The notes below the pieces were generated by a model. It was not told the DNA's origin, ran no database searches, and saw only the letters and a program-made list of their open reading frames with translations. Both the position numbers and the translations under genes were made by a program. 64,000 bases of DNA from Batkoa obscura. Taxonomy: Eukaryota. Of the stretch, positions 3,247-48,062 are shown in pieces; the first letter of the stretch is position 1, and every line of letters starts with the position of its first letter. The stretch lies in NCBI GenBank assembly GCA_030770535.1, contig JASVEC010000001.1, positions 558,001 to 622,000 of the forward strand. Reading direction: 5' to 3'.

Positions 3247-3412
3247 TAGGTTATACTAGTAAAAACTTTGCTAATTTAAGAGTTTATATTAAATTTAATA
3301 AAAATTCTGCTAATTTATAACATAAATTGTAATAAAATAATTTAAAACTGTGTCAGATACTTTGCTTTTTAATAAAAAATTTACTTTAGAATTTTAAGCA
3401 AAATTTTTAAAA

Positions 3413-5052: not shown

Positions 5053-6279
5053 TTATAAAGATTCTATTGGGTTACTAAACGTCCCATCATTGTCATGATT
5101 ATTATCAATATTGATAGGATTTGCACTTTCATCTAAAGTTGAATTGATTACATTCAATTCCATAGCAGGTTGATTAACTAAAAATATATAAGCTTATATA
5201 AATAAATAAACAAATAAGTGTACTATCATCTTTTTTCTCACTATTTTTTATAACTTTGATTTTATAAAGAACAACTTTGATTGCATCGTGAACTGTGGGA
5301 TCGCAACAAAAGGCAGTAAAATTTAATGCGCCAATAAGTGGATATGTGATAATAGTCATTCGATCCAAAATAATACTCCCTTTGTCACTAAAATCAAAGT
5401 AAATTTGGGATACAATACTTGCACTGTGAGTTATTAACATGGATATAGGATACAATAATCTATAAAATCAGTGATTTGAAATATTAATAAATTGATAAAT
5501 AGATACATTCTATAACCCAATAGTCTTATAGCTTTGATAGTTTTAAGTGTAGACTCTGAATTGGTCTTTAGTTTACGAGAGCCAATTAAAACAGCTCCCC
5601 GGCTTAACCTTATACATATGATAATAACAATGACACTAAGGTAAATAAGTGTTAATAATCTCCAAAGCTGAGTTGCGAAAAAATCAAAAATTTTCATGTA
5701 GCTTTCATCCCCAGCCTCTGCAGCAACATAGCAGCCAGCATAATCACTCCAACCAAGTTTACCTAAAGCTAATTTCGTGATTAACAGTCTTTCCAAAACC
5801 AATATTATGCTTACCAAGTGGTGGTACCGAAATCAAAAGCGAGATTATTATAGGGACTAGCCAGTATGCTATTTCAATTTTTTTGGTAATTTGGACATTG
5901 TGAATGAAAACTAGCTGTAGATTTACAGCAATTGATACATTTATAAATGAATCAAATGCCGTAATTGCTACCATGCTCCAGCCGAAAAACGTACAAATTG
6001 GACTAGGACTATATGTAAAAGGTACTCTCCATAATGATCCAGTATGTAACCAAAGAGCATAAAATGCTAATCCAGTTTGTAATCTTAAAGACACTCGATC
6101 TACTAGCTTACGATCATATATAGCTAATAAAGAATTGAGTAAAAAAAATAGTAAAACAGCATATAAGTACATATCCCGATCATAAATAAAATTACAAGCA
6201 ATGCCAAAAACGCAGAGACATAAGAAACACTTGGAACGTATTTTTCAGATAATAAATCATTGAGTGGATCGGTCTCCAT
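5053..6279 (-). CDS. 7TM GPCR-like receptor, paralog 1 (~346 aa, 5 exons; cAMP-receptor/Git3-like type)
   Basis: Exons 6279-6171, 6123-5815, 5768-5507, 5459-5224, 5177-5053 splice in frame (1041 nt) with GT-AG introns; METDPLND...IYDRKLVDRVSLRLQ...NFTAFCCDP...IESL*; seven hydrophobic segments, Cys at the top of TM3 and in ECL2. Confidence 0.85.
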
Positions 6280-6941: not shown

Positions 6942-7048
6942 ATATGGGGATGTATTTTTTTGTTTAGGAATTTTACTAACAATCTTTCCGCTAAAATAGC
7001 GCTTAAAAAGTGGAAAAAATAATGAAGCTAAAAAAAACATCCTCATAT
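6942..7048 (-). mobile_element. MITE family copy
   Basis: ATATGGGGATGT...ACATCCTCATAT, reverse-complement core. Confidence 0.85.
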
Positions 7049-7818
7049 TATTTATTCCTTAAAGGTTTGTGATTTTGAATCTAAAACAAGTTTGTTTCAA
7101 TTTATGATATATTTGTCTTATACCAAAATATAAAATATGAACACAAACAAATCAAATTAAATTAGATGTGTTCCTATTCATAAACAAGTTAATTTAGAAA
7201 GATTAAGGCAGTCAGTAGCAAGATACAAATAAAAATGTAAATCCGAAATTGGAGACATTTGAATGTGGCGACGTTTTAAGAGAACAGGATATTAAATTAC
7301 ATTATCAGTTGATTTGCAATTTAAATTCATGAATAATACATTACTAAAAATGCAATCAGTTCCATCCCTCAAAGTTATAATATTAGGATAAAATGACAGC
7401 CATCAAAGTAGTTCTTTTTTTGACGAGTAGTAAAATTTCGAAAGTATGTAAGCTTTATATATAACTAAAATTCCAATTATCTTTGTAGATAATGATGCTC
7501 TATGTGATTTTGATTAGCTCAATAATGTTAATTAATATTGGTTTTTTTAAATAACTCTAGCTATTGGTATTATTATATTTAAGTAGAAACAATTCTAAAG
7601 TTTTTAACTTTCATACCTAAAACTCAATTATTTTTACGTAACATAAACTTTACATTGTGTATGTATTAAACTATAGTTTTATTTCTCGACTTTTTGATCA
7701 TACGAAAGTTTATGTTCACTAATCCATTCAATTTTTTGCTTTATAAACATAAATTCAGATTGAATTTTATTTAATAGAATAAATCCTCATTTATAGAGTT
7801 TGGCACAAGCAAAAGAAA

Positions 7819-9043
7819 TTACAAAGATTTAATCAAGGCAGAAAAGGCTTCATTACTAGTGTAGTCATTGCTGTAATAATCAGGACTTTTGCCTTCTTCT
7901 AAACGTGGACTAATGCCATTTAATTCCATGTCAACTTGCGTAGCTAAAAACATAAGTCTATGTAAATTAAAGTAATATCATACATACCATCATCCTTCAT
8001 ATCGTCATTTGGTTTCTTGATAATTCTATAATAGACAACTTTGACTGCATTATGGACCGTAGGATCAAAACAGAAAGCAATAAAGTTTAATAATCCTACA
8101 AGGGGAAACGTAAGCATAGTCCAAGAGTCTAAGAATGTATTGGGAGTATCGCTAAATGCATCATGGGTTTGAGACAAAATTCCTGCGGTGCTGGTGATTA
8201 GCATTACTAATGGATATAACAATCTATAAAGTTAGTTAAGTGTGAAAAAAGTAAACTAACTCATACATTCTATAGCCCAATGTTCTTATAGCTCTGGAAG
8301 CTCTAGGAGAAGTTCCAGAATCCATATTCAATCTTTGCAAATCTACCAAAGTAGCCCCACGCTTTAATTTCATAAATACGATACTGACAACAACTATGAG
8401 GTATACAATTGCTAATAATCTCCAAAGTTGAGCACCAAAAAAATCAAACATCTTCATGTTTTGTTCGTTTCCTTCAACTATTGCAATATAGCAACCACCA
8501 TACCGACTCCATCCAAACATTCCTAAAGCTAAATTTATAATTTAGTAACTTTGTTGAAACCAAAGTCAAACTTACCAAGCGGAGGAATCGTGATTAAAAG
8601 GGAGAGGAGTACAGGAACTACCCAATATGCAATTTCAATATTCCTTGTAATTTGTTTGTTGTGGATGAAGACAAGCTGGAGATTTACAGCAATTGATACG
8701 TTGATAAAAGCATAGAATAATGTAAATGCTATGACACTCCAACCGAAAAAAGTACAAAGAGGTCCTGCTTCCTTTGAATAAGGTATACGCCATAACGATG
8801 CAGTGTGTAACCAGATATCATAAACTGCTAATGCAGTTTGTAATCTTAAAGACACTCGATCTACTAGCTTACGATCATATATAGCTAATAAAAAATTGAG
8901 TATAAATACTATAAAAAAAGCACTAGATACATACACATTCCGATCATAAATAAGATCACAACTAGTGCCAGGAGTGCAGAAATATAACCGACAATTGGGA
9001 TATATTTACTGATTAAAAAGAATTGAAAAGGGCTAGGATCCAT
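7819..9043 (-). CDS. 7TM GPCR-like receptor, paralog 2 (5 exons)
   Basis: MDPSPFQFFLISKY...DRVSLRLQ...NFIAFCFDP...IKSL*; same four intron positions as paralog 1. Confidence 0.85.
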
Positions 9044-9802
9044 CGTTTTAATTTTAATAACATGTTCTATTTTCTCTATTTATACATTTTTAAATCTGGG
9101 TTATTTGATTGATGTATAATTATATAATATGATATAAATGGAACATAATATAGCTTTTGATATTAAAGTTTATAATTTTGTTTTTGGGATCTTTGTTTAA
9201 TTAAAACTCCCAACTATATTCTTGTGGAACTTTTACCATTTATATTGCTAAGGTTGCAAACAAATCGTTTTTTTACTTAATACCAAATATATCTTCTAGA
9301 ATATAAATGGGGATGTTTTTTACTTTCATTTATTTTATATTTTTAAGCTCTGCGAGTGGAAATTTTTTGATAGAATTTTAAACAAAAAAATATGCTCAAA
9401 ATAACACGAGCGGGTTAGAAAACCTAGTTGAAATTGTAATTATCCAATTTGATTTAGGTTCGGGTTTGCAAGGTTGGGGGCATTGATTTTAAAATTTGGC
9501 AAAAGTGGCTTTTTATTATACTAGGTAGGTTTTTATGAGGTAGTTTTTAAAGTATCTAAAGTACTTTAGTGAAAAACCTGGTAAGAGCAATGAATTGCAA
9601 CTAGAAAAAACATTATTTGTAAAATAATACTTAATTTAAAGGAATTTTTTAAAAAATAAAATTGTTAACATAGTAGCAAATTACCTATTTTTTAAAGTCA
9701 AAAACCTTATTTTGAAATAATCTTATGTATGCAATGAAGTTTTTGGGCAAAAAATAATAACCACGTTATTAGCTGCGCCAGCTATTATTTTTGTTCAAAG
9801 CC

Positions 9803-10065
9803 TGTAAAATTCGATACTTAGTAGGTGGGGTTAAGCAGTTCTAGCTTAATCAACTAGCTTTAAGTTAAAAAGTCTTAGTTTATATAATTAAAATAAACTT
9901 AAATTATAAAAAATAGTATATAATAAGTTATAGACTATGTAAAACAAGTAGAATAAAAAACACAATTATGAAGTTTATATAAAATATCATAAAAAAATTT
10001 AATAGCTTTATTAAAAAAAATAATTTAAAAAAACAAGTTATAATAAAAAGTTTTTTTATACTCTG
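9803..10065 (-). mobile_element. Degenerate, AT-shifted relic of the LTR-like element (duplicate at ~14805-15067)
   Basis: 9841-9990 aligns ungapped to 10750-10899 at ~70% identity; begins TGTAAAA versus TGTGAAA; right boundary approximate. Confidence 0.75.
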
Positions 10066-10196
10066 CATTAAATAATTATATATAAAAACCACAATAACAG
10101 TTATAATATTTTATAAGCTATGATTTATTATTTGATAAAAAAAATTCTATAATTCTATAAAATTGCTTTTATAAAAATGTATAAAACAGCTTTGCT

Positions 10197-10302
10197 ATAT
10201 GGGGATGTATTTTTTTGTTTAGGAATTTTACTAACAATCTTTCTGCTCAAATAGCGCTTGAAAGATGTAAAAAGTGATGATACCAAAAAAACATCCCCGT
10301 AT
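10197..10302 (-). mobile_element. MITE family copy (duplicate 15199-15304; degenerate copies at ~9307-9400, ~10421-10516 and their +5002 duplicates)
   Basis: ATATGGGGATGT...ACATCCCCGTAT. Confidence 0.85.
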
Positions 10303-10709
10303 AAAAACTTATTTAGTATTTACTTTTTATAAAATTTGTATTAATTTTTTACTTCCTGAAAATAACTTTTAATTATTAAAACTAAAAAACTTCTAATAAC
10401 TGTTAATATATATATATAAACGTGCATTTTTGTGTTTAAAAATTTTATTAAGAATTTTTGCTTAAATAGCACTTAAAAGATAAAAAAAAAGATAAAGCCA
10501 AACAAACATCGCTATGTTTTTTATTTTTTATTTTTTTAAAGCTTTTTTCAGCTTTTTTTTACTATTTGTTATATTAAAAATAACTTTTAATTATAATACT
10601 CAACAGTCAAATTATTAGTTTAATTTTAATTTTAATTTTAATTTTAATTTTTAAAATAAATTTATAAAAATAAATAGAAAATAACTATAATTAAACCAAA
10701 TATAAAAAA

Positions 10710-11170
10710 TGTGAAAGTTGGTACTCAGTGGTAGGAGTTAAAAGCAGTTCTTGGTTGATTAACTTGCCTTGAGTCGAACGGTCTTAGTTTATGTAACTAA
10801 GATACACTTAAATTAGTATGAATAGTACGCAATAAGCTACGAACTATGTAAAACAAATAGAATAGAGGATACTACTGTAAAATCTACGCAAGACGTTGTC
10901 AAAAAGACTTAATGGCTTTATTGATAGTATGATATCAGGGAGTAATTCAATTAAAAAGCTTCAAGTTATCATGTTGAAGAATCTCTTTTATACTCCAACA
11001 AGTATGGATATCAAAATGAGAGGATATTATTCTTTGCAATATAAAGTTAGAAATTCTTGCAGCAAATCAAAATAAGTGGCTCTGAATTGACTGTACTTGA
11101 ACTTGAAACACAGCAACTTAAGTGATTGTTGTTATAATCAATCCGAGAGCTAATAAAGCAATATTTCACA
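10710..11170 (-). mobile_element. LTR-like element, inverted copy of 2785-3246
   Basis: TGTGAAAGTTGG...ATATTTCACA; reverse complement matches 2785-3246 with few substitutions. Confidence 0.7.
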
Positions 11171-11186
11171 ATAATTAATATTTAGC

Positions 11187-11293
11187 ATCTGGGGATGTAT
11201 GTTTGTGTTTAAGAATTTTACTAACAACCTTTCCACTCAAATAGCGCTTGAAAGATAAAAAAAAGTGATGAAGCCAGAAAAAAACATCCTTAT
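11187..11293 (-). mobile_element. MITE family copy (duplicate ~16189-16295)
   Basis: TGGGGATGTAT...ACATCCTTAT, reverse-complement core. Confidence 0.8.
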
Positions 11294-11643
11294 CTGTTAA
11301 AATAAAAAATTATTAAAAAACAATTTTATATAAATAAAATAAGCTATTTAAAGTCTAGTTTTATTTATAAAAAATTAAGAAAATAAAGAAAAAGTTTTAC
11401 AAATCTGGCAATATAATAATTTATTTAGAATAAAAATAGAAGTAAAGCAGTCGAGGTTTGCTATAAATCTTATATATGGATTTTTTTATTTAAAAACGTA
11501 AATAAAAGTATCATATTCTAAACTATTTAAAAAACAAATAAAATCTTAAAGTAAAAAAAGATTTTTCTATAATAAGTTGCATTTTAAGTTCTGTTTTTAC
11601 TTTTAATTTCTTTTATAACAAATTTATAAATCAAGACATTGTG

Positions 11644-11749
11644 TATGGGGGTGTTTTTTTTGGCTTCATTACTTTTTCCATTTTTTAAGTGCTATTTCAG
11701 CGGAAAGATTGTTAGTAAAATTCTTAAACAAAAAAATACATCCCCATAT
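11644..11749 (+). mobile_element. MITE family copy (duplicate 16646-16751)
   Basis: TATGGGGGTGT...ACATCCCCATAT. Confidence 0.85.
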
Positions 11750-12802
11750 AGCTTATAAATCTGCTATAAAAGAGACTAACAATAAATTAAAAAAAACAAA
11801 AGCACTTAAATGCAACCAGTTTTATAAAAATTTGGAATAATTTAAAGAATATGTGTACCTTATAAAGCAATATAAAGTATAAGACAAAAACTTTAAAATT
11901 ATAACATTACAGACAAACCAAACTTAATAATAAATTTTAAAACTAATAAATCCGATACATAGATATATTTTTGTCGATAATTTAATTATTTTTCAGGTCC
12001 TTAAATTTGGAGAGCAAAAAAGTGGCTAAGAGAAAAAGATATACCACATGGGTTGTAATCTATGAACTTCGGTATATTTTCAAAAAAACCATTTCCTTTA
12101 TTGTAACCTTATTCAAAAGGTGGTAAAATTTCTAAAAAAGAATTATAATATTCCCCTTTAATTCTCAAAGCTGTCATATTATTACCACATGGGATAGTTT
12201 ATTCTTATTGCTTAAATATTTTTTATCTAAATTTATTTGACAAATCATGTTTTATTTGTTCTAGCAGGTGATTCGAAAATAATTTTTTTAAGGGATACAT
12301 ATTTAACAAAAAATGCTCAGATATAATAAAATATTCCAATAATTAGATAAATTGGCCATACTATACTATAGCTAATGCTTTTTTGATTTTGTTGTTTATT
12401 TTTTTACATCTTATTCTCAACCAAACATATAATTTAAATGTATATTTTAATGTTCTAACTTTATAAATCTCATAGCTAAACCTCAGTCCTTGGAAATTTC
12501 TAAAAAATATATAGCACCTAAGTTAGTCTATGTACAAAGTTCATTTTTTTACAGTCTTACTATAAGGGTTTTATTAGCTAAGGATGAACAGGACAAAAAT
12601 ATACAATTCTTCCTAGTTTGGAATTGGCTATATAAATTATAAATATTTGGATTGGTGGAATCTATTTTTAACTTAAGGGTTTCTTAAATTTACCTATTCA
12701 CAGTATAAATGCAAAATCTAACGTTACTAAAATATGACTATTTCAAAAATTCAATAAAAATGTATGTTAATGAGCTTAAACTCAAATTTTATTAATTACT
12801 CT

Positions 12803-14045
12803 TTATAAAGTGCTTATAAAGCGTTGAAGTAAAACATCTTCATTTTCTGTCGCATTCTCCGGAACATCGCCAATTTCAATAGCATTACTATTATTTGTAG
12901 AGGCATCATTAACAAGTTCAAAAGTTCCGTCATTATCTAAATATATAATTAATAAATCTAGAGTCCTACAATCGACTTACTATTATTTTCTACTCTAATC
13001 TCTCTTCCACATGAATAATAAAACGACAGTCTTAAATAAGCTTTCCTAACAGCAGAATGAACGGTTGGATCAGAGCAAAAGGCAATAAAATTTAATGTCC
13101 CAACAAGAGGGAACGTAAGCATAGTCCAAGAGTCTAAAAATGTATTGGGAGTGTTACTAAAAGCATCATGAGTTTGAGACAAAATTCCTGCAGTGTTACC
13201 AATTATCATTACTAAAGGATACAGTAAACTAAATTCCAATTAGATTGTTATATATATATGTTATTTATTACATTCTATAGGCTAAAAGCTTAACACTTTT
13301 CAATGCTTTCATTGAGGTCTTTGTGCCTCGTAGATATTTATTTTCCACTAGAATAGACTCTTTTTTCAAGGACATTATTACAGCAATTACTACAACTATG
13401 AGGTATACAATTGCTAATAATCTCCAAAGTTGAGCACCAAAAAAATCAAACATCTTCATGTTTTGTTCGTTTCCTTCAACTATTGCAATATAGCAACCAC
13501 CATACCGACTCCATCCAAACATTCCTAAAGCTAAATTTATAATTTAGTAACTTTGTTGAAACCAAAGTCAAACTTACCAAGCGGAGGAATCGTGATTAAA
13601 AGGGAGAGGAGTACAGGAACTACCCAATATGCAATTTCAATATTCCTTGTAATTTGTTTGTTGTGGATGAAGACAAGCTGGAGATTTACAGCAATTGATA
13701 CGTTGATAAAAGCATAGAATAATGTAAATGCTATGACACTCCAACCGAAAAAAGTACAAAGAGGTCCTGCTTCCTTTGAATAAGGTATACGCCATAACGA
13801 TGCAGTGTGTAACCAGATATCATAAACTGCTAATGCAGTTTGTAATCTTAAAGACACTCGATCTACTAGCTTACGATCATATATAGCTAATAAAAAATTG
13901 AGTATAAATACTATAAAAAAAGCACTAGATACATACACATTCCGATCATAAATAAGATCACAACTAGTGCCAGGAGTGCAGAAATATAACCGACAATTGG
14001 GATATATTTACTGATTAAAAAGAATTGAAAAGGGCTAGGATCCAT
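12803..14045 (-). CDS. 7TM GPCR-like receptor, paralog 3 (apparent chimera: paralog-2 promoter and 5' end, paralog-4 3' half)
   Basis: 5 exons in frame; MDPSPF...NFIAFCSDP...QRFISTL*. Confidence 0.8.
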
Positions 14046-15711
14046 CGTTTTAATTTTAATAACATGTTCTATTTTCTCTATTTATACATTTTTAAATCTG
14101 GGTTATTTGATTGATGTATAATTATATAATATGATATAAATGGAACATAATATAGCTTTTGATATTAAAGTTTATAATTTTGTTTTTGGGATCTTTGTTT
14201 AATTAAAACTCCCAACTATATTCTTGTGGAACTTTTACCATTTATATTGCTAAGGTTGCAAACAAATCGTTTTTTTACTTAATACCAAATATATCTTCTA
14301 GAATATAAATGGGGATGTTTTTTACTTTCATTTATTTTATATTTTTAAGCTCTGCGAGTGGAAATTTTTTGATAGAATTTTAAACAAAAAAATATGCTCA
14401 AAATAACACGAGCGGGTTAGAAAACCTAGTTGAAATTGTAATTATCCAATTTGATTTAGGTTCGGGTTTGCAAGGTTGGGGGCATTGATTTTAAAATTTG
14501 GCAAAAGTGGCTTTTTATTATACTAGGTAGGTTTTTATGAGGTAGTTTTTAAAGTATCTAAAGTACTTTAGTGAAAAACCTGGTAAGAGCAATGAATTGC
14601 AACTAGAAAAAACATTATTTGTAAAATAATACTTAATTTAAAGGAATTTTTTAAAAAATAAAATTGTTAACATAGTAGCAAATTACCTATTTTTTAAAGT
14701 CAAAAACCTTATTTTGAAATAATCTTATGTATGCAATGAAGTTTTTGGGCAAAAAATAATAACCACGTTATTAGCTGCGCCAGCTATTATTTTTGTTCAA
14801 AGCCTGTAAAATTCGATACTTAGTAGGTGGGGTTAAGCAGTTCTAGCTTAATCAACTAGCTTTAAGTTAAAAAGTCTTAGTTTATATAATTAAAATAAAC
14901 TTAAATTATAAAAAATAGTATATAATAAGTTATAGACTATGTAAAACAAGTAGAATAAAAAACACAATTATGAAGTTTATATAAAATATCATAAAAAAAT
15001 TTAATAGCTTTATTAAAAAAAATAATTTAAAAAAACAAGTTATAATAAAAAGTTTTTTTATACTCTGCATTAAATAATTATATATAAAAACCACAATAAC
15101 AGTTATAATATTTTATAAGCTATGATTTATTATTTGATAAAAAAAATTCTATAATTCTATAAAATTGCTTTTATAAAAATGTATAAAACAGCTTTGCTAT
15201 ATGGGGATGTATTTTTTTGTTTAGGAATTTTACTAACAATCTTTCTGCTCAAATAGCGCTTGAAAGATGTAAAAAGTGATGATACCAAAAAAACATCCCC
15301 GTATAAAAACTTATTTAGTATTTACTTTTTATAAAATTTGTATTAATTTTTTACTTCCTGAAAATAACTTTTAATTATTAAAACTAAAAAACTTCTAATA
15401 ACTGTTAATATATATATATAAACGTGCATTTTTGTGTTTAAAAATTTTATTAAGAATTTTTGCTTAAATAGCACTTAAAAGATAAAAAAAAAGATAAAGC
15501 CAAACAAACATCGCTATGTTTTTTATTTTTTATTTTTTTAAAGCTTTTTTCAGCTTTTTTTTACTATTTGTTATATTAAAAATAACTTTTAATTATAATA
15601 CTCAACAGTCAAATTATTAGTTTAATTTTAATTTTAATTTTAATTTTAATTTTTAAAATAAATTTATAAAAATAAATAGAAAATAACTATAATTAAACCA
15701 AATATAAAAAA

Positions 15712-16172
15712 TGTGAAAGTTGGTACTCAGTGGTAGGAGTTAAAAGCAGTTCTTGGTTGATTAACTTGCCTTGAGTCGAACGGTCTTAGTTTATGTAACT
15801 AAGATACACTTAAATTAGTATGAATAGTACGCAATAAGCTACGAACTATGTAAAACAAATAGAATAGAGGATACTACTGTAAAATCTACGCAAGACGTTG
15901 TCAAAAAGACTTAATGGCTTTATTGATAGTATGATATCAGGGAGTAATTCAATTAAAAAGCTTCAAGTTATCATGTTGAAGAATCTCTTTTATACTCCAA
16001 CAAGTATGGATATCAAAATGAGAGGATATTATTCTTTGCAATATAAAGTTAGAAATTCTTGCAGCAAATCAAAATAAGTGGCTCTGAATTGACTGTACTT
16101 GAACTTGAAACACAGCAACTTAAGTGATTGTTGTTATAATCAATCCGAGAGCTAATAAAGCAATATTTCACA
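15712..16172 (-). mobile_element. LTR-like element, copy inside the 5002-bp duplication
   Basis: Matches 10710-11170 at +5002. Confidence 0.7.
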
Positions 16173-17804
16173 ATAATTAATATTTAGCATCTGGGGATGT
16201 ATGTTTGTGTTTAAGAATTTTACTAACAACCTTTCCACTCAAATAGCGCTTGAAAGATAAAAAAAAGTGATGAAGCCAGAAAAAAACATCCTTATCTGTT
16301 AAAATAAAAAATTATTAAAAAACAATTTTATATAAATAAAATAAGCTATTTAAAGTCTAGTTTTATTTATAAAAAATTAAGAAAATAAAGAAAAAGTTTT
16401 ACAAATCTGGCAATATAATAATTTATTTAGAATAAAAATAGAAGTAAAGCAGTCGAGGTTTGCTATAAATCTTATATATGGATTTTTTTATTTAAAAACG
16501 TAAATAAAAGTATCATATTCTAAACTATTTAAAAAACAAATAAAATCTTAAAGTAAAAAAAGATTTTTCTATAATAAGTTGCATTTTAAGTTCTGTTTTT
16601 ACTTTTAATTTCTTTTATAACAAATTTATAAATCAAGACATTGTGTATGGGGGTGTTTTTTTTGGCTTCATTACTTTTTCCATTTTTTAAGTGCTATTTC
16701 AGCGGAAAGATTGTTAGTAAAATTCTTAAACAAAAAAATACATCCCCATATAGCTTATAAATCTGCTATAAAAGAGACTAACAATAAATTAAAAAAAACA
16801 AAAGCACTTAAATGCAACCAGTTTTATAAAAATTTGGAATAATTTAAAGAATATGTGTACCTTATAAAGCAATATAAAGTATAAGACAAAAACTTTAAAA
16901 TTATAACATTACAGACAAACCAAACTTAATAATAAATTTTAAAACTAATAAATCCGATACATAGATATATTTTTGTCGATAATTTAATTATTTTTCAGGT
17001 CCTTAAATTTGGAGAGCAAAAAAGTGGCTAAGAGAAAAAGATATACCACATGGGTTGTAATCTATGAACTTCGGTATATTTTCAAAAAAACCATTTCCTT
17101 TATTGTAACCTTATTCAAAAGGTGGTAAAATTTCTAAAAAAGAATTATAATATTCCCCTTTAATTCTCAAAGCTGTCATATTATTACCACATGGGATAGT
17201 TTATTCTTATTGCTTAAATATTTTTTATCTAAATTTATTTGACAAATCATGTTTTATTTGTTCTAGCAGGTGATTCGAAAATAATTTTTTTAAGGGATAC
17301 ATATTTAACAAAAAATGCTCAGATATAATAAAATATTCCAATAATTAGATAAATTGGCCATACTATACTATAGCTAATGCTTTTTTGATTTTGTTGTTTA
17401 TTTTTTTACATCTTATTCTCAACCAAACATATAATTTAAATGTATATTTTAATGTTCTAACTTTATAAATCTCATAGCTAAACCTCAGTCCTTGGAAATT
17501 TCTAAAAAATATATAGCACCTAAGTTAGTCTATGTACAAAGTTCATTTTTTTACAGTCTTACTATAAGGGTTTTATTAGCTAAGGATGAACAGGACAAAA
17601 ATATACAATTCTTCCTAGTTTGGAATTGGCTATATAAATTATAAATATTTGGATTGGTGGAATCTATTTTTAACTTAAGGGTTTCTTAAATTTACCTATT
17701 CACAGTATAAATGCAAAATCTAACGTTACTAAAATATGACTATTTCAAAAATTCAATAAAAATGTATGTTAATGAGCTTAAACTCAAATTTTATTAATTA
17801 CTCT

Positions 17805-19047
17805 TTATAAAGTGCTTATAAAGCGTTGAAGTAAAACATCTTCATTTTCTGTCGCATTCTCCGGAACATCGCCAATTTCAATAGCATTACTATTATTTGT
17901 AGAGGCATCATTAACAAGTTCAAAAGTTCCGTCATTATCTAAATATATAATTAATAAATCTAGAGTCCTACAATCGACTTACTATTATTTTCTACTCTAA
18001 TCTCTCTTCCACATGAATAATAAAACGACAGTCTTAAATAAGCTTTCCTAACAGCAGAATGAACGGTTGGATCAGAGCAAAAGGCAATAAAATTTAATGT
18101 CCCAACAAGAGGGAACGTAAGCATAGTCCAAGAGTCTAAAAATGTATTGGGAGTGTTACTAAAAGCATCATGAGTTTGAGACAAAATTCCTGCAGTGTTA
18201 CCAATTATCATTACTAAAGGATACAGTAAACTAAATTCCAATTAGATTGTTATATATATATGTTATTTATTACATTCTATAGGCTAAAAGCTTAACACTT
18301 TTCAATGCTTTCATTGAGGTCTTTGTGCCTCGTAGATATTTATTTTCCACTAGAATAGACTCTTTTTTCAAGGACATTATTACAGCAATTACTACAACTA
18401 TGAGGTATACAATTGCTAATAATCTCCAAAGTTGAGCACCAAAAAAATCAAACATCTTCATGTTTTGTTCGTTTCCTTCAACTATTGCAATATAGCAACC
18501 ACCATACCGACTCCATCCAAACATTCCTAAAGCTAAATTTATAATTTAGTAACTTTGTTGAAACCAAAGTCAAACTTACCAAGCGGAGGAATCGTGATTA
18601 AAAGGGAGAGGAGTACAGGAACTACCCAATATGCAATTTCAATATTCCTTGTAATTTGTTTGTTGTGGATGAAGACAAGCTGGAGATTTACAGCAATTGA
18701 TACGTTGATAAAAGCATAGAATAATGTAAATGCTATGACACTCCAACCGAAAAAAGTACAAAGAGGTCCTGCTTCCTTTGAATAAGGTATACGCCATAAC
18801 GATGCAGTGTGTAACCAGATATCATAAACTGCTAATGCAGTTTGTAATCTTAAAGACACTCGATCTACTAGCTTACGATCATATATAGCTGATAAAAAAT
18901 TGAGTATAAATACTATAAAAAAAGCACTAGATACATACACATTCCGATCATAAATAAGATCACAACTAGTGCCAGGAGTGCAGAAATATAACCGACAATT
19001 GGGATATATTTACTGATTAAAAAGAATTGAAAAGGGCTAAGATCCAT
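17805..19047 (-). CDS. 7TM GPCR-like receptor, paralog 4
   Basis: MDLSPF...; same as paralog 3 except P3L and a CAG versus TAG intron-1 acceptor; unique upstream sequence beyond 19054. Confidence 0.85.
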
Positions 19048-19813
19048 CGTTTTATCTTGATTTTATATCTTAATATTTCAATATCTGGTACGAGTATTTA
19101 TAAATAAATATTAATTAATTATACAGAAATATTGGGATTTGGGTGACAGTGAATTTAATTTTTTTAAGAGTATTTATACTTTTGGCTTGTCTAAACTTAA
19201 TCAAATTTATTAGAGAGTTTTGTTTATTTTTAATTTTTTGAAAAGTTGTTCTCAATAAATTTATCTTAAACTTTAAACGCTACATGCGAACTACAACCTT
19301 TAGGTTATTAAGAAATAGGAGCAACAAATGATAAATTACACTTAGAAGTACTAATTAGTTCATCCTAAATGAATATCAAGTTGAAAGGCTTTATAATTAC
19401 GGCTCAATATATTTCTATCCATATTTAATCCACCGAGAATAGCCCATAAATATGCAACCAATATACTAATATGGTTGTGACATGAAATATGTTAAAAACT
19501 AGGATATTATATAGCGTAATGTTACTGGCTTGAATTCCATTTCAAGGTCAGTCAACGATATTAATATTATAGCCTATTTTTGGTAACGCCTTATTAAATG
19601 ATTTAATATTACATTATTTTTCATATTGATTAAATATTAGTATTAATGATACCACATAGTTATAAATTCCGTTGATTAACATACCTGGATCTATATTATC
19701 AAGAATAGAAGTTCATATTTTATTCTGTAGCATTATTTAAAATGCAACTATTAAAATTAATTTTTGTAAAAAGTAGCTCAAACCAAAAAAAACTGATTTT
19801 ATTTTTTAGATAT

Positions 19814-19920
19814 ATATGGGGATGTTTTTTTTGGTTTCATTACTTTTTTTATTTTTTAAGCGCTATTTGAGTGGAAAGATTGTTAGTAAAATTCTTAAAC
19901 AAAAAAATACATCCCCATAT
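19814..19920 (+). mobile_element. MITE family reference copy (107 bp including flanking AT)
   Basis: Perfect ATATGGGGATGT / ACATCCCCATAT terminal inverted repeat, in a TA context. Confidence 0.9.
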
Positions 19921-20238
19921 AGGTTTTTAAATTTATTTTTTATTTTTTTTAAACTTTTTTTATATATATTTATTAAAAAACTTCAGTAAGTTGTTTGTAA
20001 AAAAGTAGCTTTTGTTTTAGATATAATTAGATATTAACAAATGATTAAAAAATAAATATAAACTCACATTTATTTATTAATGTATTATACAAAATTTAAA
20101 CATTTTTGGACAAACTATGATAAATTTACTTCAGAAAATAAAATCTTAGGAAATAAACTAGTTTTTAAACCATTACAAGTAAAATATAATTATAAATAGA
20201 AGATGCTTCTAATGATGTTACCAATTTAGCATGACATC

Positions 20239-32823: not shown

Positions 32824-33031
32824 ATATGTGGATGCATTTTATATTTAAAAATTTTATTAACAATCTTTTCACTCAAATAACGCATAAAAAATGGAAAAAG
32901 TGATGAAGCCAAAAAAACACCCCTATATGGGGATGTATTTTTTTGTTTAGGAATTTTACTAACAATCTTTCCACTTAAATAGCGCTTAAAAAACGGAAAA
33001 AATAATGAATCCAAAAAAAACACCCCCATAT
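32824..33031 (-). mobile_element. Head-to-tail MITE dimer
   Basis: Two consecutive copies joined at CCCCTATATGGGG (~32920-32932). Confidence 0.85.
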
Positions 33032-34227
33032 ATTTATTCTAAAATTTTAAATTCTAGGTATGATAGTATTATGTATATGTCACAAAAGCTTTAAAAATTT
33101 TATACTCAGCAGTGCAATAACCGATAAGTTAATATAAAATAATATAAAATAAGCTTAATATTTGATTAATGTCAATAGAAAATTTCAAAATCTTCCTAAC
33201 TAAATATATAATAATAAATGTAAATTTGGTTATGCTTATCAGTGTATTTGAATAAAATTTAATGTTGTGTTTTTTTTGTTTTTTTTGTTTTTATTATTTT
33301 AAATATAAAATAATTTGATATATTGATTATTATAAACTAAAAAATAATTTTATAGTATTAAATTAAATAAAAAATTTAAAATATTAAGTATAAGTTAAGA
33401 TATCTATATATCTAAATAAGTTTAAAAGTTGGTTAAAATAAAAAATAAAGTTTAATAATTTTATATTTTTGTCCATTCCCTATGTAGCATAAATTTAAAA
33501 AAACAACTAAAGTTGCACAAAAAGACGTTCCATGAGTTATTTTAAAATTAAACAAAATTTGAGCTAAGTTTTTAAACCAACTCATATATTATTTTTAACA
33601 TTATAAATAGCTTATCATTTTTAATATTCAAACATCAAAATATTAATTCAAAAAGGCTATCACTTATTATACTTGCGATCAATAATAAACAAAACCCCAC
33701 ATCAACTAAAGTGTAAAATTCGAATAGGATAAATTTTCAATGAATATGCTAAAGTAAGGAATTACATTTTATATATATTGAAAGTTCCATATATCACAAT
33801 TATAAAAAAATATACTCAATAGATTAAAAAATAGGCTCTAAAGAAGCCAATTGATTCAATTGAAGTATTTAAAATAGAAATAAAAGTTAATAATGAAATA
33901 ATATTAATGAAAAAACGTCCGTAAAAAATAGGAAATTAAAAGGGTGAATAATTGAGATCGGAAGAATGGGTCATAAGCCAATCATTAACTCAACTCAAGA
34001 ATTGGAGGTTTTATTTATTGGTTATTAAAAACGTTAATTTTTGAGAACTTATTTAATTAAATGGTGTTTTTAAATTTAACTGAAAAATAACTAATTTATT
34101 AAGTTCCAATTATTATTTTTTTCAATATTTTATCTCTTTTTTACTTCCATTTTCATTTTTGTTGAAATTACAATAATCAATATTAACAATTAACTTACTT
34201 TAATTAATATATATTATTAATTCCATT

Positions 34228-36352: not shown

Positions 36353-36883
36353 ATGGCCAAAATAGTAATTTTAATTATGGGTGTTAGTGGTAGTGGAAAG
36401 AGTAGTATTGCATCCAAATTAAGTCAACATTATAACATATCTTATATTGAAGCGGATGATTACCATAGTGATAATAATAAACAAAAAATGAAGTTAGGTC
36501 ATCCATTAACTGATCTTGATCGTCAACCCTGGTTATTATCTTTAAGTAAAGCATTAAAAACCCATCCAAATGATACAGTAATCTTAGCTTGTTCTGCTTT
36601 AAAAAAAGAATATAGAAATAAGTTAAAGGAAAGAATTGAAAGATTTATTATTGTTTATTTAGATTTAGAATATGAAACTATTTATCAAAGATTAATGTTA
36701 AGGAAAAATCATTTTATGGGCACTAATTTATTAAGATCTCAGTTTGATACATTAGAATTACCTGATGAAAATAAGGAGGAGGATGTTCATTTAATAAATA
36801 TTAAAGCAGAAGATGATATTGAGGATATTGTTGGATTTATAGTACCAGTTTTAGATAAGTTAAATTTGAATTTAAAGAAATGA
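36353..36883 (+). CDS. Gluconokinase (GntK/IdnK, thermoresistant glucokinase family)
   Basis: MGVSGSGKS P-loop, EADDYH, PLTDLDRQPWL, ACSALKKEYR, HFM...LLRSQFDTLE. Confidence 0.95.
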   Translation: MAKIVILIMGVSGSGKSSIASKLSQHYNISYIEADDYHSDNNKQKMKLGHPLTDLDRQPWLLSLSKALKTHPNDTVILACSALKKEYRNKLKERIERFIIVYLDLEYETIYQRLMLRKNHFMGTNLLRSQFDTLELPDENKEEDVHLINIKAEDDIEDIVGFIVPVLDKLNLNLKK

Positions 36884-37033: not shown

Positions 37034-38829
37034 ATGAATAACGAAACACCTGAAAAAATTATTAAAAAACTCAAGCAACAAAATGATATTTCAGAAACAT
37101 CAACTACATTAAATAATTCAAGAGAAACAAAAACACGAAATGAAACGAAAAAAGAAAATGTTAAAAAAAAAGTACAATTGATTTATAATAACGCATTATT
37201 TATGTTAGATAAAGGCAATAATACAAGTTGTATTAAAGGAGATGAATTAAAAGATCCAATTAAATTATTTTATCCTTTCTTATTATTGAAGGATACTCAG
37301 CCTGAATTGGGGTTTTTTATTAATAAAATGGATGAAAATGGATATACTAATTTAATTATGGAACAATATTGTAAGTTTTTAATTTAATTTAAATTTAATT
37401 TAATTTAATTTATAAATATTAATAAAGTAAATTTTTATTTTTAGACAATATATTAAAAAAGAAAGAAATGAAAAAAGAATTTGATAATAAAAATTCAGAA
37501 GGTTATAAATTAATGAAAAATTTATATAATTGTATATCAACGGATATGATTAAATTGGCTATTAATTCATGTTTACTTAATATATTTAACCCATCGATTT
37601 GTTTGGTTCAAACTTGGTAATTTAATATATTATTTTATTTATATTAATATGATTATTATTAATAGTGATCCTGAAGTTGATAATGAAAAAGTAAATTATT
37701 ATTATCAATCAATTTAACTTATTTACTAATATTATTAATTAGAAATAGTAATTTAAATTTTATTTATAATAGTAATATACTAAATTATACTTATTATTTA
37801 TTTTATTTATTATTTGTAGTATTGTATGTTTTATTGTATGTTTTAATTAGAATAATAATTAAATTATTAGGTTGATGCCCTTAGTCATCATTTTGTACAG
37901 TCACCTAAATCAAGGGTAGCTATATTTAATTGGTAATTTAAATTAATATAATACTATTTTAATTAAAGTAATTCATATAATTAGGGATTTATGTCATAGT
38001 AATAAATATAGAACTAATTAAATTATTATGACAATATATTAAATTTTAAATCAGGTAAAGAAATTGAAAATAATTTTAATGATAAAGAAGATGTATTAGT
38101 AATTAGTATTAATACAATAACAAATAATCAAAGTAGAAATAATGGAAATGAAGAATTAAATAAAAACAAAATAAGAAAGTAAGTTTATATTTCATATTAA
38201 TATCAAAATTGAATTTATTAATTATTTTTATTTAAGGAATATTAATTTAGATTTAGAATTTAATAATACAATTAATCAAGATATTTTATTTCTATTTCAT
38301 CAACTTTTATTACCAATATTATTGGAGTTTAATCCAGATTTTATTTTAAGTAATTAATTAATTAAATTATTTATATTTATGTTGATAATAATATTATAGT
38401 ACCAACACATTTTAATAGAAACGATAGTAAGTTTATCTATATAATTTTATATTTATAATTAAATTTAATAATTGAATATTAAATAGAATATAAACAATTG
38501 AATACAAGTACTTATGTTCATTTATTATATTATTTATCAATGGTACAAAAAGGGAAACTAATCTTATCAGTGGAAGTAAGCAGTATAACACCATTAATAT
38601 TTAATTAATTTTAATAATTCTTATTAAATTAACCTTTAATATTATTAAATAGGTAGATAATTCCATTGAAAACATTAAAAATATAATGGAAGAATGTGTC
38701 AAATTATTTATGGGCAAAAATATCAATGATAATGATATATTAGTGAATTATAAACCTTCAGGAAAAATTATTTCAATAGTCAAAGCATTTAATAATAGAT
38801 TTAAAAAATATTGGATGTTTTTAAGTTAA
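37034..38829 (+). CDS. Catalytically dead class II HDAC-fold paralog (pseudo-deacetylase), 12 exons
   Basis: Splices into an uninterrupted ORF with 11 introns at the same positions and phases as the neighbouring HDAC; keeps RVAIFNWD, LPILLEFNPDFIL, GKLILSVE and KKYW but lacks the catalytic motifs. Confidence 0.75.
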
Positions 38830-39301
38830 TTTGTTGAGAAGTTAAAATATTAGTTGTTACCTTTAAATAGATTTATTATTTTGTTTTTAGCTTCTTTTAT
38901 ATTTTATTTGTTTAATAGAATAGCTTGAATATATTTTGTTTTATTGAGTAATTAGTATTTTTCTAAAATTTAGTTGATTCAACCACTATCTTATTTTGAT
39001 GACATCTCCTATTCCTTCATATTATTTATTATATTTTGTTTTATAAACAGTTAATTTGTAGTATTAAACTCTTTTAAAAATAAACTTAATTAATTTTTAT
39101 TAGTTTAATCATTTATCATGTCTATTTAATTAACTTTATTAATATTAGAGTTGAAATTTTTGATTTTATTTTATAATAAAGAAATTCAAAGCTGATTGGT
39201 TTACTATTCTAAAAACTAAACTGCATTACATAACATTATAAAAACAACAGCCTAGTTGTTAAAACTCAATTTTCATTTTCAATTTTTCAATTCGTCTAAA
39301 A

Positions 39302-41140
39302 ATGAATGATAGCACAGTAAGTCAACTCAAATATCCAAAACAATAATTTCACTCAACATCAATTTTCAATTAGAAAAAAGAACAAGAAACATTACTATCG
39401 GAGCTTACACATAGGACTGGAATAGTATATGATGCACGTTTGTTAAATCATGATCAAATAGATCAAGCTTCTGGAATTCATCCAGAAAATCCAGTACGAA
39501 TTTACAAAATTTATAAATTATTACAAGAATTAGATTTATTAAAGAAAATGAAAAATATACCATGTAGAGAAGTGAATGATTTCGAAATTTTATATTACCA
39601 TGATAGAGAACATTTAGAATTTATGCAAGATACAGAAAGTAAGTTAAAGGATTTGTGAATTTAATTTAAAAAGATGAAGGAGGCTAATATCAATTTTTTA
39701 TTTATAGAATTAAGCTTAAAGAGATTAAAAGAATTGACTCAAGATGGAGATTCTGTTTATTTTAATAAAAGTACTCATTTTTGTGCACGATTATCGTGTG
39801 GTGGAGTACTTGAACTGCTTAAAGAAATTGCATTAAATAATATTAGTAATGGTATTGCAGTAGTTAGACCGCCGTAAAAATTTACTTCAAATATGTATAA
39901 ATTATATAAAGGGTATTAATCGATTTTTGTTAGTGGTCATCATGCAGAGAAAAAAAATGTAATTTTATTGTTTATATAAGAATGTTAAATATGTTTTATT
40001 AATAAATTATTTTTTAGGCAATGTAATATTTGGGATTTGCTTTTTTAAATATAAAAATTAGGTTTTAATGCTTTTTTAAAAGGGGATTTTGTTTCTTTAA
40101 TAATGTTGTAAGTCAATTCATAAATTATAATAAATGGTTATAATAATTAATAATTAAGGTTATTGGAGTAGAAAAATTAAGACGAACATATGGAGTTAAA
40201 AAAGTATTAATATTAGATTGGTAATAAATATTAAAATATTTAAAATAATATTATATAATATTAATTAAATTAAGGGATGTACATCATGGTATAAATAAGA
40301 TAAATAAAATAAGATGAATAAAAAAACTAAATAAAATAATAAAGGAAACGGAATTGAAGATGCATTTATTAATGAAAAAGATATACTTTATATATCATTA
40401 CATCGATATGGTAATGAATTTTATCCAATGACTGGACATCCAGCAGATATTGGTAGAGGAGAAGGTATTGGAAGGTAATTCATCATAAAATTAAATAAAA
40501 TATTAAAATAATATTAAATATAATAGAAATGTAAATATTGCCTTTACTGAAAAAGAAATGGGAGATGCCGATTATATTTATGCTTTTATTAAAGTGGTGA
40601 TGCCAATGGCTATGGAATTTAATCCTGAATTGGTTGTTAGTAAGGTTTAATATTATCTAATTATTATAACTTTTTTTAAAATAGTTATTCTTTTTAATAG
40701 TTTCTGCTGGATTTGATGCAGCTAAAGGTAATTTTAAAAATAAAATTAATACTTTTATATAAATTGATATAAAAAATAAGGTGATCCTATCGGAGAATTT
40801 AAAGTAACTCCTGATGGTTATGCAATGATGACTTATTTATTGAAAGGATTAGCTAATGGTAAATTAGCAGTTTGTTTGGAAGTAAATAAAATATTTATTT
40901 ATTCTAATAACTAAATTGAATTAATTTTATTTTTAATAGGGGGGGTATAATCCAGATGCAATTGCTAAATCAGTTTTAGCAGTATGTAAAGTATTATTAG
41001 GTGATATACCCAATACAATTGAATTTGAAGATGTAAGTGAAAAGGGTAAAAAAGATGTTTATGAAGTAATTAGTCATCATGCTAAATATTGGAATTGTAT
41101 GAGATCAGCTGCTAAAATTTTAAATTTAGAAAGCTATTAG
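39302..41140 (+). CDS. Class II (Hda1/Clr3-like) histone deacetylase, single catalytic domain, 13 exons
   Basis: RTGIVYD, HPENPVRI, VRPPGHHA, MGFCFFNNV, LDWDVHHGNG, SLHRY...FYP, SAGFDAAKGDPIG, LEGGY all intact; ends ...LESY* with no Arb2 domain. Confidence 0.92.
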
Positions 41141-43235: not shown

Positions 43236-44374
43236 ATGAAATTTGGTAGTTACATTGAAGTATGTGATTCAAGTGCATTAAGTATTTGTAATTTACTCAA
43301 TAATTCCACTGGTTTATCAACCAAATGTTATACTCGTACCTATCAATGGTTTAACTCCTATTTATTTGAATATTGTTATTTTTTTATATATTTAATTGCT
43401 TTTATTATGCTATCAATTATTTTATATAATTTAAAAAAGAAAACAATGACAGAAGGTAAGTATTAATAATATTATAATAAATTATTTTTTTATTGATGAT
43501 AAATTATTAGTAGTTAAAAATATGATAATTTTTTTTTATCTCTATTTATTCATGTTGACTGTGGATTCAGTAACTATTACGAATATCATACCGTCAAATT
43601 CAGGGTTTTATACAGTAAGTTTAATTAGATATTATATTATTATATGAAACTAATAATATTATTATTATAGTTTTTAGTACTTTTGAATACTTCTTTAAAT
43701 TTAAGTTTATCAATCTTTTTATTTTTAACTGGATTATTAAATTTTCCATTTGTATTAAAAGTTAATCGGATCAATTTAGTAAGTTCTTCATCCTCATATC
43801 TTTAAACTAATATTAACATTAATATTACTATTATTATTAGTACATCAAACTCACTTCATTAAGTTTATTTTTAATAATGTTTTTAATTAGTATATTAACT
43901 ATTAAAAATATGGGAGGATTAGATTCTAAAAATCCATCTTTATTATGGTTTCTTCATTTATTATTACCCAATTTATTAATTACATTATATATAATATCTC
44001 AATTATGTTTTACTTTTTATTATATTGAAAATCGATGGGCATTAGGTAAATTCTATATGTTAAATAATAATAATATAATATTAACTATTAATTTTATTTT
44101 ATTATTACTATTATTATTATTAATTCATTATAATAATATAGGTGATATTATTATAGGTTATTTATTTTATTTATCAGGTTTATTATTTTTATCTGTATTA
44201 TCAATACCATTATGTCAATCCTTTAAACATTATTTAGATGGTATATTTTTCTTTCAAGTTAGTCAATTATGTAGTATTATGATGTGTTATAAATTTATTG
44301 ATGGGATTACTACTACTGATTTAGAATTTATTATGTTACCTTTGGATTTAAAAAATAGTTTGTCATTGGATTAA
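43236..44374 (+). CDS. CHS7: Chitin synthase export chaperone Chs7 family, 5 exons
   Basis: MKFGSYIEVC...LSIC N-terminus, RWALGDI, HYLDGIFF, MMCYKFIDGITTTDLEF; multiple TM segments. Confidence 0.85.
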
Positions 44375-46217: not shown

Positions 46218-46892
46218 TTAAATCTTTTGACCTGGAAATGTGGTAATAATATCCGTCAACACTTGACCATTTTGATCCATAATAGCAGCCTTAATAGTGA
46301 CTCCATTAACAGAATTAACCGGAGGTTGAGCCATAACAATTAAAGGTTGATCCGAGAATGCTGGTCTTCTATAATTAACTGAATATTTAACATTAACCTT
46401 AGGATTTGTAAAACCAGTAAATTCTCTAGTAGCTTCTTGTAATAAAGTAGCTAATAAGCCTCCATGAATAATTCCTTTATGACCACAAACATTGGCACCC
46501 ATATAATAAACTTTAGTTAGCTTACCGCTGAATTCAGCTTGAATCAAATCTTCTCTTTTTAATGTTTGTTTGGTTAAATGAGTAGAAGTTGGGAATAATT
46601 GAGTTTGTAATTTATTGAGTAAAGTGACTTCTTCATTAGCTTCAAGTTGGATTTTATGTTTTGAAATAATAGGTAAATTGTAAGGTTCTAATTTTATACT
46701 AGAGTTTGATGTTGATTTAGTACTATAATATAAACTTGGAGCAACTAAACCAGCTATTAATAATAGGGTATTTCTTAAATAAGCGGGTTTATAATTGGAT
46801 GTTGGATAATTAATAGCTGGTAAACTAGATGTCATACTTATCCCTGCTTTACTTTGATAAAGGGATTTAAATTGCTTTAATTTAGTTAACAT
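46218..46892 (-). CDS. Hotdog-fold acyl-CoA thioesterase (PaaI/THEM4-like), probably mitochondrial
   Basis: GANVCGHKGIIHGGLLATLLQE and VNYRRP motifs. Confidence 0.85.
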   Translation of the reverse strand: MLTKLKQFKSLYQSKAGISMTSSLPAINYPTSNYKPAYLRNTLLLIAGLVAPSLYYSTKSTSNSSIKLEPYNLPIISKHKIQLEANEEVTLLNKLQTQLFPTSTHLTKQTLKREDLIQAEFSGKLTKVYYMGANVCGHKGIIHGGLLATLLQEATREFTGFTNPKVNVKYSVNYRRPAFSDQPLIVMAQPPVNSVNGVTIKAAIMDQNGQVLTDIITTFPGQKI

Positions 46893-48062
46893 ATTGTTAT
46901 TATTATTTTTTTATGAAATTATTTTTATTTTTATTTTAAATTAAATTATTTTAGTTTTGTGTTTATTTGATTTTATATACTCTTTTTTTGGATTCTCCCT
47001 TAAATAGATATCAAAAGAATGTGATTCTTAAGAGCCAATGAAATTACAAAAGCTTATCTCTATTAAAATTAATAAACTCTCTCTTTGGATCATATTTTTT
47101 CAAATCAATGGGACTATTAAAAACTGATCACTTATTGACAAATTAAATGACTAATTAAATCAATATAATTTGTTATTAAGTTTCAAATTGTTTGAAAAAT
47201 TACAAATTACTTTGCACCTCCTAAATTTGGTAAATAGCAATCTATTTTTTGACATTTTTGAAAAATATATTTCCATCAGCTTTCCCCCACCCAATTTTTA
47301 TTTGGCTAATTTTTAGAAAATGACATCATAGTTAAGGGAAATTAATTTTCCAGGATAAAAATTTATGATATTTTTTAAAAAGCGGTTATTAAAATCTTAA
47401 TTCCCATTCTCCCCCTCTCTTTTATGCAGTTTAAGCTTACTTTTTCAACAATAAAAATTAACTGTGAGATTCAATTTAAGCTGGTTTAAAGTGAGTTCTT
47501 TTTGAATATTGTTGTTTATTCTTAGGTTAATAGCTTTTTTGTTATTAACTTGGTATCAGACTTTGGTTATGTGAAATTATAAGGTATTTGTTTATTAACA
47601 GGGTATGTTTGATTATATATGTTATTAATTTTCTTTATACAAAATTTAATCAATTGTCGATAAATTAGACAAAAACCAGTATTAATTTTTTAATAACTTG
47701 CAACATGGTGTTTTATAAAAAAATTAGCGGTAAGGGTATAAGGTTGCAACAAAGTATTTTTACATGAAAGTAATTTTTGTATTTGGTCTAAAGATTAACA
47801 TCTGTTGCAATCAACAACTTTGCTATTTTTTGGTCAAAAAACTAAGATTATTCGTAAAAAAAAAACCTTATATTGTTTTAGATATATTATAAAAATATTA
47901 ATACTCTATATAAAAATACAAACTTCCTAACTATTTTAGCTTGTAAATGTTTAATACTAACCTATATTTAACTTATGTATAACTTCAGCTTTTTAAAATA
48001 TTAAAATATAATTAATTTCATATAACTTCAATTGTTTGTATTATTAGTAGTTTTATTTTACT

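Follow-up and report, generated by a model that had tools for sequence, protein, structure and literature searches.

In the 64,000-nt window analysed here, a stretch of Batkoa obscura contig JASVEC010000001.1 to which all coordinates refer, our models support the forward-strand interval 37034-38829 as a gene for a non-catalytic protein with the fold of a class II histone deacetylase (HDAC). The gene lies immediately upstream of, and on the same strand as, a gene for an apparently active Hda1/Clr3-like deacetylase at 39302-41140. We refer to the two products as the dead copy and the enzyme. Each protein has one close match, both from Neoconidiobolus thromboides FSU 785: KAI9293923.1 for the dead copy (89% identity, here P0001) and KAI9293922.1 for the enzyme. 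The exon structure, the predicted fold, the pattern of divergence between the two genomes and the existence of further dead relatives suggest that the upstream gene encodes a real stand-alone pseudo-deacetylase, so far undescribed and probably order-wide.

Gene structure, lost active site and predicted fold

The splice chain was modelled from sequence alone. The window contains about 24% guanine plus cytosine (GC) and its introns are short; within the upstream gene, the exons have 21.3% GC and the introns 9.7%. The original prediction held that this AT-rich interval splices into a stop-free open reading frame, and a model of 12 exons bears this out (37034-37370, 37445-37616, 37666-37690, 37743-37747, 37820-37823, 37871-37932, 37985-37998, 38055-38178, 38237-38349, 38400-38426, 38487-38575 and 38653-38829), giving a predicted protein of 382 amino acids that no stop codon interrupts. 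Each of the 11 introns has GT-AG borders and a length of 47-77 nt. The prediction had also listed six exons with partners of identical length in the downstream gene (25, 5, 62, 14, 113 and 27 nt), and all six pairs are present, the downstream members at 39934-39958, 40018-40022, 40159-40220, 40275-40288, 40527-40639 and 40701-40727. Equal intron phases had been claimed as well, and each of the 11 upstream introns matches an intron of the neighbouring gene in aligned place and phase; the neighbour has one additional intron, after MNDST. Exon 1 (37034-37370) encodes a polar, basic N-terminal extension and the first strand, and ends in phase 1, as does exon 2 of the active gene.

The two proteins align with a local score of 210, compared with 51 ± 7 (maximum 77) in 500 shuffles, and BLASTP gives an E-value of 6e-17. 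Because the score is far above the shuffle maximum, the likeness is not due to chance. Identity is about 25% across 157 alignable residues. Six key residues have been defined for Hda1, namely the His-His pair, the Asp-His-Asp zinc ligands and the Tyr (PMC7793584; statements taken from this and the other cited papers refer to their accessible parts). Five of the six are gone from the dead copy, with the first zinc Asp as the sole survivor, and the alignment confirms the motif replacements as originally described. In the 25-nt exon (37666-37690) PGHHA is replaced by CDPEV, so that both catalytic His residues are lost. In the 14-nt exon (37985-37998) DVHHG has become DLCHS, which retains the first zinc Asp and exchanges the zinc His for Cys, and in the 27-nt exon (38400-38426) GFD has become HFN, an Asp to Asn change that removes the third zinc ligand. 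The last exon (38653-38829) has VDN in place of GGY, with loss of the catalytic Tyr; it retains the KYW tail and ends in a stop codon of its own. Alongside KYW, the scaffold motifs EFNP and GKL also persist, as had been proposed. Between strand 3 and the DW motif the dead copy has 33 residues versus 40 in the enzyme, the seven-residue GFCFFNN loop having been deleted.

This deletion falls on the micro-exons at 37743-37823, where the model is uncertain. Exon 5, the counterpart of the enzyme's 25-nt exon for GFCFFNNV, is shrunken to 4 nt (37820-37823) in our preferred model and follows a 5-nt exon (37743-37747). Alternatively it could have 16 nt, with a 35-nt intron, or could be skipped along with the 5-nt exon, and the frame is kept in all three versions. 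We disfavour the 16-nt form, as its intron has 35 nt versus 47-77 nt elsewhere and it yields a segment of 37 amino acids versus 33 in the dead relative P0009, described below. The NCBI model of P0001 skips both micro-exons, leaving a 30-residue segment; the NCBI model of the active ortholog also deviates at this spot, where it reads VILL from what is an intron in the window, and for this reason the NCBI models are not decisive on the micro-exons. A 12-nt tandem repeat (37820-37843) sits exactly on the shrunken exon and creates the two alternative donors of the 4-nt and 16-nt forms.

Structure predictions and the PF00850 search were run on the ortholog P0001 rather than on the window protein itself, and a deacetylase fold was recovered. 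PF00850 matches P0001 with an E-value of 2.9e-5, under the Pfam curated cut-off. With a 70-row alignment made up mostly of active HDACs, AlphaFold2 (AF2) reached a predicted local distance difference test score (pLDDT) of 76 and a predicted template modelling score (pTM) of 0.77, and from the single sequence without an alignment the pLDDT was 38; confidence is low at residues 20-37, within exon 1. Among 48,161 chains the AF2 model matched catalytic domain 2 (CD2) of HDAC6 with Z 27.5, HDAC10 with 27.4 and Clr3 with 26.5. The template modelling (TM) scores to class II HDACs were 0.63-0.68, and the structural matches covered 290-336 aligned residues. A model from the ESM Atlas, built independently of our alignment, has a pTM of 0.70 and a TM of 0.71 to class II HDACs. 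The dead copy is thus predicted to have the arginase/deacetylase alpha/beta fold.

Sequence retention was scored over 16 regions as the share of active-enzyme identity that is kept, with helix names assigned from sequence. Loops L3, L7 and L8 keep 0-14% of the identity common to active enzymes, in both the window protein and P0009. The helix ahead of strand 7, alpha-F (LLLPILLEFNPD), is encoded by the 113-nt exon (38237-38349) and keeps 60% in the window protein and 77% in P0009. It is the best-retained element between these two proteins, with the highest identity of the 16 regions (52%). For alpha-G the corresponding shares are 41% and 87%.

The downstream gene (39302-41140, forward strand) is modelled with 13 exons and encodes a predicted protein of 382 amino acids with a full catalytic set (HH, DxH, D, Y). 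Its best single-domain PDB matches are Hda1 (332 bits) and Clr3 (316 bits), versus 303 bits for HDAC6 CD2. A 37-row tree placed it with four Arb2-bearing proteins (support 93/78, unstarred), and in a 24-row tree it was not resolved. The gatekeeper is Ile, in a GDPIG motif that aligns with GDPKG of HDAC6 catalytic domain 1 and GDPLG of CD2 and does not carry the Glu of HDAC10; because of this residue we do not consider the enzyme HDAC10-like. No Arb2 domain is attached to it: the stop codon lies 14 residues past YW, Pfam finds PF00850 alone on the ortholog, and a 10-sequence Arb2 profile found no Arb2 across the 64-kb window (best E 2), in which the next gene downstream is on the opposite strand. 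Of the 63 proteins in an Atlas cluster, mostly from Zoopagomycota, only 21% carry Arb2. Arb2-less forms may be common in Zoopagomycota, or the cluster may contain fragments, and a lineage-wide loss or separation of Arb2 is possible.

Between the two genes lies a spacer of 472 nt (38830-39301, forward strand), across which no splice path leads in frame into the active gene. When four GT donors within 38700-38826 were tested with introns of 45-100 nt, none gave a route, and the open stretch 39263-39301 is without an AG. The sequence supports the dead and active copies as separate genes.

Evidence for selection on the dead copy, and its likely relatives

The two FSU 785 proteins have consecutive accessions and the longest contig for each is 74,260 nt, so the pair is very likely adjacent in that genome too. 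Between the two genomes 39 of 378 aligned residues differ in the dead copy (10.3%) and 12 of 382 in the enzyme (3.1%), making the dead copy about three times faster. We simulated neutral drift to 39 differences, with 1,000 runs per setting, an assumed mutation model and the NCBI frame taken as correct; the result is not a dN/dS estimate. The frame stayed stop-free in only 1.3-2.0% of runs (P 0.013-0.02), and changes as conservative as those seen arose in 0.1-0.6% (P 0.001-0.006). The open frame and the conservative changes argue for purifying selection on the dead copy, in line with the earlier suggestion that a non-catalytic protein is under selection here. Residues 259-283 contain no strain difference, versus about 2.6 expected out of the 39, a weak signal.

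To find relatives, P0001 was searched against 1.84 billion representatives, which gave 164 matches at E ≤0.001, 150 of them listed. In a motif census of 232 domains, 23 had at least two key residues changed. P0009 and P0110 are among the matches listed: P0009 has 368 amino acids on a 1,386-nt contig and four of the six key residues changed, and P0110 is a fragment of 173 amino acids on a 948-nt contig with the Tyr lost. The two are 48% alike, and the length of P0009 relative to its contig suggests that it comes from a spliced transcript. A search with an alignment of P0009 and P0110, restricted to proteins of 95-662 residues, returned six proteins, including P0161, an incomplete gene model from Massospora cicadina that carries the name hda1 and is 69% alike to P0009 over 84 residues; the other three new matches have ordinary catalytic motifs. 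Massospora belongs to the Entomophthoraceae and Neoconidiobolus to the Neoconidiobolaceae, both in the Entomophthorales.

Several comparisons connect these proteins with the window. Among the fetched proteins, P0009 is the top non-self BLASTP match, and the Neoconidiobolus enzyme is the best active match of both P0009 and P0110. P0009 also makes the best single-sequence profile, at 76 bits versus at most 60 for the others. The 33-residue segment between strand 3 and DW is common to the preferred window model and P0009 only, in the 11 rows measured, and the breaks in the Massospora model coincide with window introns 7 and 9. We built a tree of 37 rows from the C-terminal 260 columns under a mixture model, with seven animal-type pseudo-domains included and no vertebrate HDAC10 pseudo-domain. 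The five dead fungal-type rows formed one clade at 100/99, apart from the seven animal-type domains. By the approximately unbiased (AU) test, grouping the window dead gene with its neighbour as a recent local duplicate was borderline rejected (p 0.047), and a grouping with four animal domains of the P0003 type was rejected (p 0.032). A sister relation between the dead clade and the Neoconidiobolus enzyme was neither shown nor rejected (p 0.32).

On this basis we are fairly confident that the window dead gene is orthologous to the Massospora-type dead proteins. Because the dead rows form one clade at 100/99 and the seven-residue loop deletion is shared with P0009, the gene likely predates the split between Neoconidiobolaceae and Entomophthoraceae. 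As to its origin, we favour an old duplication of this lineage's single-domain Hda1-like gene, because the 5- and 14-nt micro-exons are shared and the Neoconidiobolus enzyme is the best active match of P0009 and P0110. Other results pull against this history. The dead clade is unplaced within class II, and remained so when the 13 long rows were dropped from the tree, leaving 24 of the 37. Shared derived residues occur at 10 of 62 columns for P0009 versus 11 for the animal-type P0106, and among two-sequence profiles, pairs of animal pseudo-domains score up to 104 bits versus 83 for P0009 with P0110. Moreover, the Neoconidiobolus branch is 4.57 long and its composition is atypical.

No fungal fused form was found among the labelled proteins in the all-length P0001 search, with 150 of the 164 matches listed. 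Of 12 loci found by a metagenome scan (25-35% identity), the one inspected, L012, carries two intron-free HDAC-like genes and was rejected as a dead ortholog. Dead HDAC domains were also seen in the animal-type HDAC6-like proteins P0003, P0045, P0130, P0106, P0151 (a member of a 12-member cluster) and P0156, the last with its first domain dead, its second intact and a region resembling a zinc finger at the C-terminus. A crayfish HDAC6-like protein has four HDAC domains, of which the third is dead. Such domains seem to arise repeatedly.

Possible roles of the dead copy

One butterfly interface, built from alpha-F, alpha-G, loop LH and the C-tail, is common to the Clr3 homodimer, the domain pair of HDAC6 and the active and dead domains of HDAC10 (PMC5454378). 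The lobes of yeast Hda1 are asymmetric, with the Tyr held in catalytic position in one and shifted in the other (PMC7793584), and Arb2 serves in dimerisation and histone binding (PMC5036196). By analogy, we hypothesize that an Hda1-like gene was duplicated in tandem and that one copy gave up catalysis and kept the interface elements. The homodimer would then have become a back-to-back heterodimer of an active and a dead lobe. The latter would stabilise the enzyme's shape or recruit partners, and it may be more important where the enzyme is without the dimerising, histone-binding Arb2. The outcome would be an HDAC10-like layout on two genes, reached independently. We infer the pairing from the retained interface helices and the known class II dimer geometry, and occupying the second dimer lobe would most simply account for a dead paralogue that has been kept so long. 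To a role as a partner that stabilises or targets the neighbouring enzyme we give somewhat under an even chance. The wider proposal, that in at least two families of Entomophthorales the Hda1 homodimer has given way to an obligate heterodimer in which an Arb2-less enzyme pairs with a dedicated, separately encoded pseudo-deacetylase, seems to us plausible and rather doubtful.

Some of our own results weigh against a partner role. Core strands 7 and 8 keep 80-103% of active-enzyme identity, equal to or above the interface helices, and loop LH is poorly kept even between active enzymes (17%). The same alpha-F motif occurs in the prokaryote-type enzyme P0162, and because of this and the equal retention of the core strands, the conservation of alpha-F may reflect folding only. 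The adjacency of the genes is known from two very close genomes only, and tandem duplication alone explains it. In addition, the discussion in PMC11532494 indicates that dimerisation is not obviously essential to HDAC10 activity.

The dead copy could instead be a conserved scaffold or adaptor that has its own partners, or forms a homodimer, and stands beside the enzyme by tandem origin only. The evidence on age, selection and fold fits a scaffold equally well, as do the conservation of the core strands, the threefold faster change between strains and the polar, basic N-terminal extensions of the window protein and the Massospora model, which are longer than that of the enzyme. However, no other element is as well conserved between the window protein and P0009 as alpha-F, and the lack of strain differences in residues 259-283 points weakly the same way. 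We regard a scaffold as conceivable and, on the whole, unlikely. The dead copy could also bind the enzyme as an inhibitor that replaces an active lobe or sequesters co-factors, lowering deacetylation at some life stage. Its anatomy would be the same as that of a stabilising partner, and separate genes with a 472-nt spacer permit separate regulation. No result separates inhibition from activation, however, and an HDAC10 construct with both domains stays active (PMC5454378); inhibition strikes us as quite unlikely.

If the pocket had instead been re-purposed to bind a metal or small ligand or to do other chemistry, this would explain why the window protein (DLCH) and P0009 (DKDH) both retain the first zinc Asp together with the xxH after it. 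We think such re-purposing very improbable: because the remaining pocket residues vary between orthologs (zinc His position, C/D; third ligand, N/D/D; Tyr position, N/C/N), a new shared active site is disfavoured. A decaying pseudogene or relaxed duplicate with a frame not yet broken would agree with the very long branch, the AT-rich composition and the mere 150 nt from the upstream gene's stop to the ATG. Yet at about 25% identity to its neighbour the gene has no stop, it is intact in two genomes 10% apart, where P for no stop is 0.013-0.02, and it has dead relatives in another family, and P0009 suggests a spliced transcript; decay is highly improbable. We give almost no credence to a single read-through transcript encoding a two-domain protein of HDAC6 or HDAC10 type. 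The genes are on the same strand, 472 nt apart, with the dead domain first, but no in-frame route exists with introns of 45-100 nt, an in-phase jump from 38825 to the acceptor at 39707 would require a weak donor and an intron of 883 nt and would lose the enzyme's first 93 residues, and NCBI models two proteins.

As a putative partner of the enzyme, the dead copy invites comparison with known class II systems. The original prediction suggested a split HDAC10/HDAC6-like module. This fits as an analogy, but the neighbour is Hda1/Clr3-like with an Ile gatekeeper and the 37-row tree did not place the dead copy with the animal-type pseudo-domains (AU p 0.032 for the four P0003-type domains). The pseudo-domain of zebrafish HDAC10 (5TD7) is likewise a non-catalytic deacetylase fold beside an active class II domain, with its active-site loops lost, and it has diverged rapidly with its interface helices conserved (PMC5454378); here the loops are degenerate, L3 being shorter by 7 residues, and alpha-F is well kept, alpha-G partly, and the core strands equally. 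It differs in being fused C-terminal to its enzyme, whereas the dead copy is encoded by a separate, upstream, fungal gene, and in its extent, with about 213 residues versus the 290-336 aligned residues of a nearly full fold here. The partner differs as well, having Ile (GDPIG) where the polyamine deacetylase has Glu (PMC5454378).

The enzyme departs from Hda1 and Clr3 in being without Arb2. Yeast Hda2 and Hda3 are not known to be HDAC paralogues, whereas the candidate subunit here is a paralogue of the enzyme. The domains of Hda1 and Clr3 (6Z6F, 5IKK), the enzyme's best single-domain matches, are butterfly homodimers, and the yeast enzyme needs non-catalytic subunits, of which Hda2 and Hda3 carry long coiled coils (PMC7793584). 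Class IIa HDACs offer another parallel in their class II fold, little catalysis and scaffold role, but their zinc site is intact, in contrast to the loss of five of six key residues and part of the tunnel loop in the dead copy. Their single key change is Tyr to His. These proteins (HDAC4/5/7/9) have been termed pseudodeacetylases (PMC12747566). Similar losses, some of them convergent (R>Q, D>N), are found in degenerate domains of animal HDAC6-like proteins, such as domain 3 of the crayfish protein XP_045600455.1 and domain 1 of P0156; those two domains are fused to active ones and were not grouped with the fungal clade in the 37-row tree.

Surrounding sequence and significance

Upstream of the pair, a single-exon P-loop kinase at 36353-36883 (Pfam SKI, E 4.9e-11), which we take to be gluconokinase-like from its motifs, has its stop 150 nt before the pseudo-deacetylase ATG. 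Downstream lie a Chs7-like chitin synthase export chaperone at 43841-44374 (E 3.4e-24) and a thioesterase-like frame at 46218-46910 (E 0.004). The interval 8387-19054 is a near-perfect tandem duplication with a period of 5,002 nt (5,666 nt at 99.95%, about 2.1 copies) that is either a recent gene-family expansion or an assembly artefact. Its minus-strand frames are hydrophobic and resemble multi-pass membrane proteins, with no match in a Pfam search, and a 75%-identical copy is located at 5612-6197. A 466-nt repeat in inverted orientation (2782-3247, 10709-11173 and 15711-16175; 96.6%) and another, dispersed one measuring about 115 nt (806-918, 6942-7057, 11644-11760, 19814-19932 and 32918-33039; 90-93%) are possibly small mobile elements.

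A full-text literature search, with most subscription journals outside its scope, found no account of a fungal or free-standing pseudo-HDAC of this kind, in agreement with the earlier statement that no fungal example was known. The accessible part of PMC11105155 mentions "deacetylase" twice, both times for polysaccharide deacetylases, and three of its supplements hold no PF00850 or Arb2 entry. New here are the dead relatives in Massospora, P0009 and P0110, with which the gene is likely older and more widespread than the original prediction supposed. Annotation overlooks it: the ortholog is a "hypothetical protein" under the Pfam cut-off, and the Massospora fragment is labelled as an ordinary hda1.

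Most descriptions of dead HDAC domains concern parts of multi-domain proteins of animals, in which the contribution of the dead domain is not easily told apart from that of the fused enzyme. A free-standing dead domain can be added, removed or titrated, making the contribution of a pseudo-deacetylase to its partner directly testable. If the proposed pairing is true, the dead copy would be a new kind of subunit for class II HDACs of fungi, in a lineage that diverged early and whose Hda1-like enzyme is here Arb2-less.

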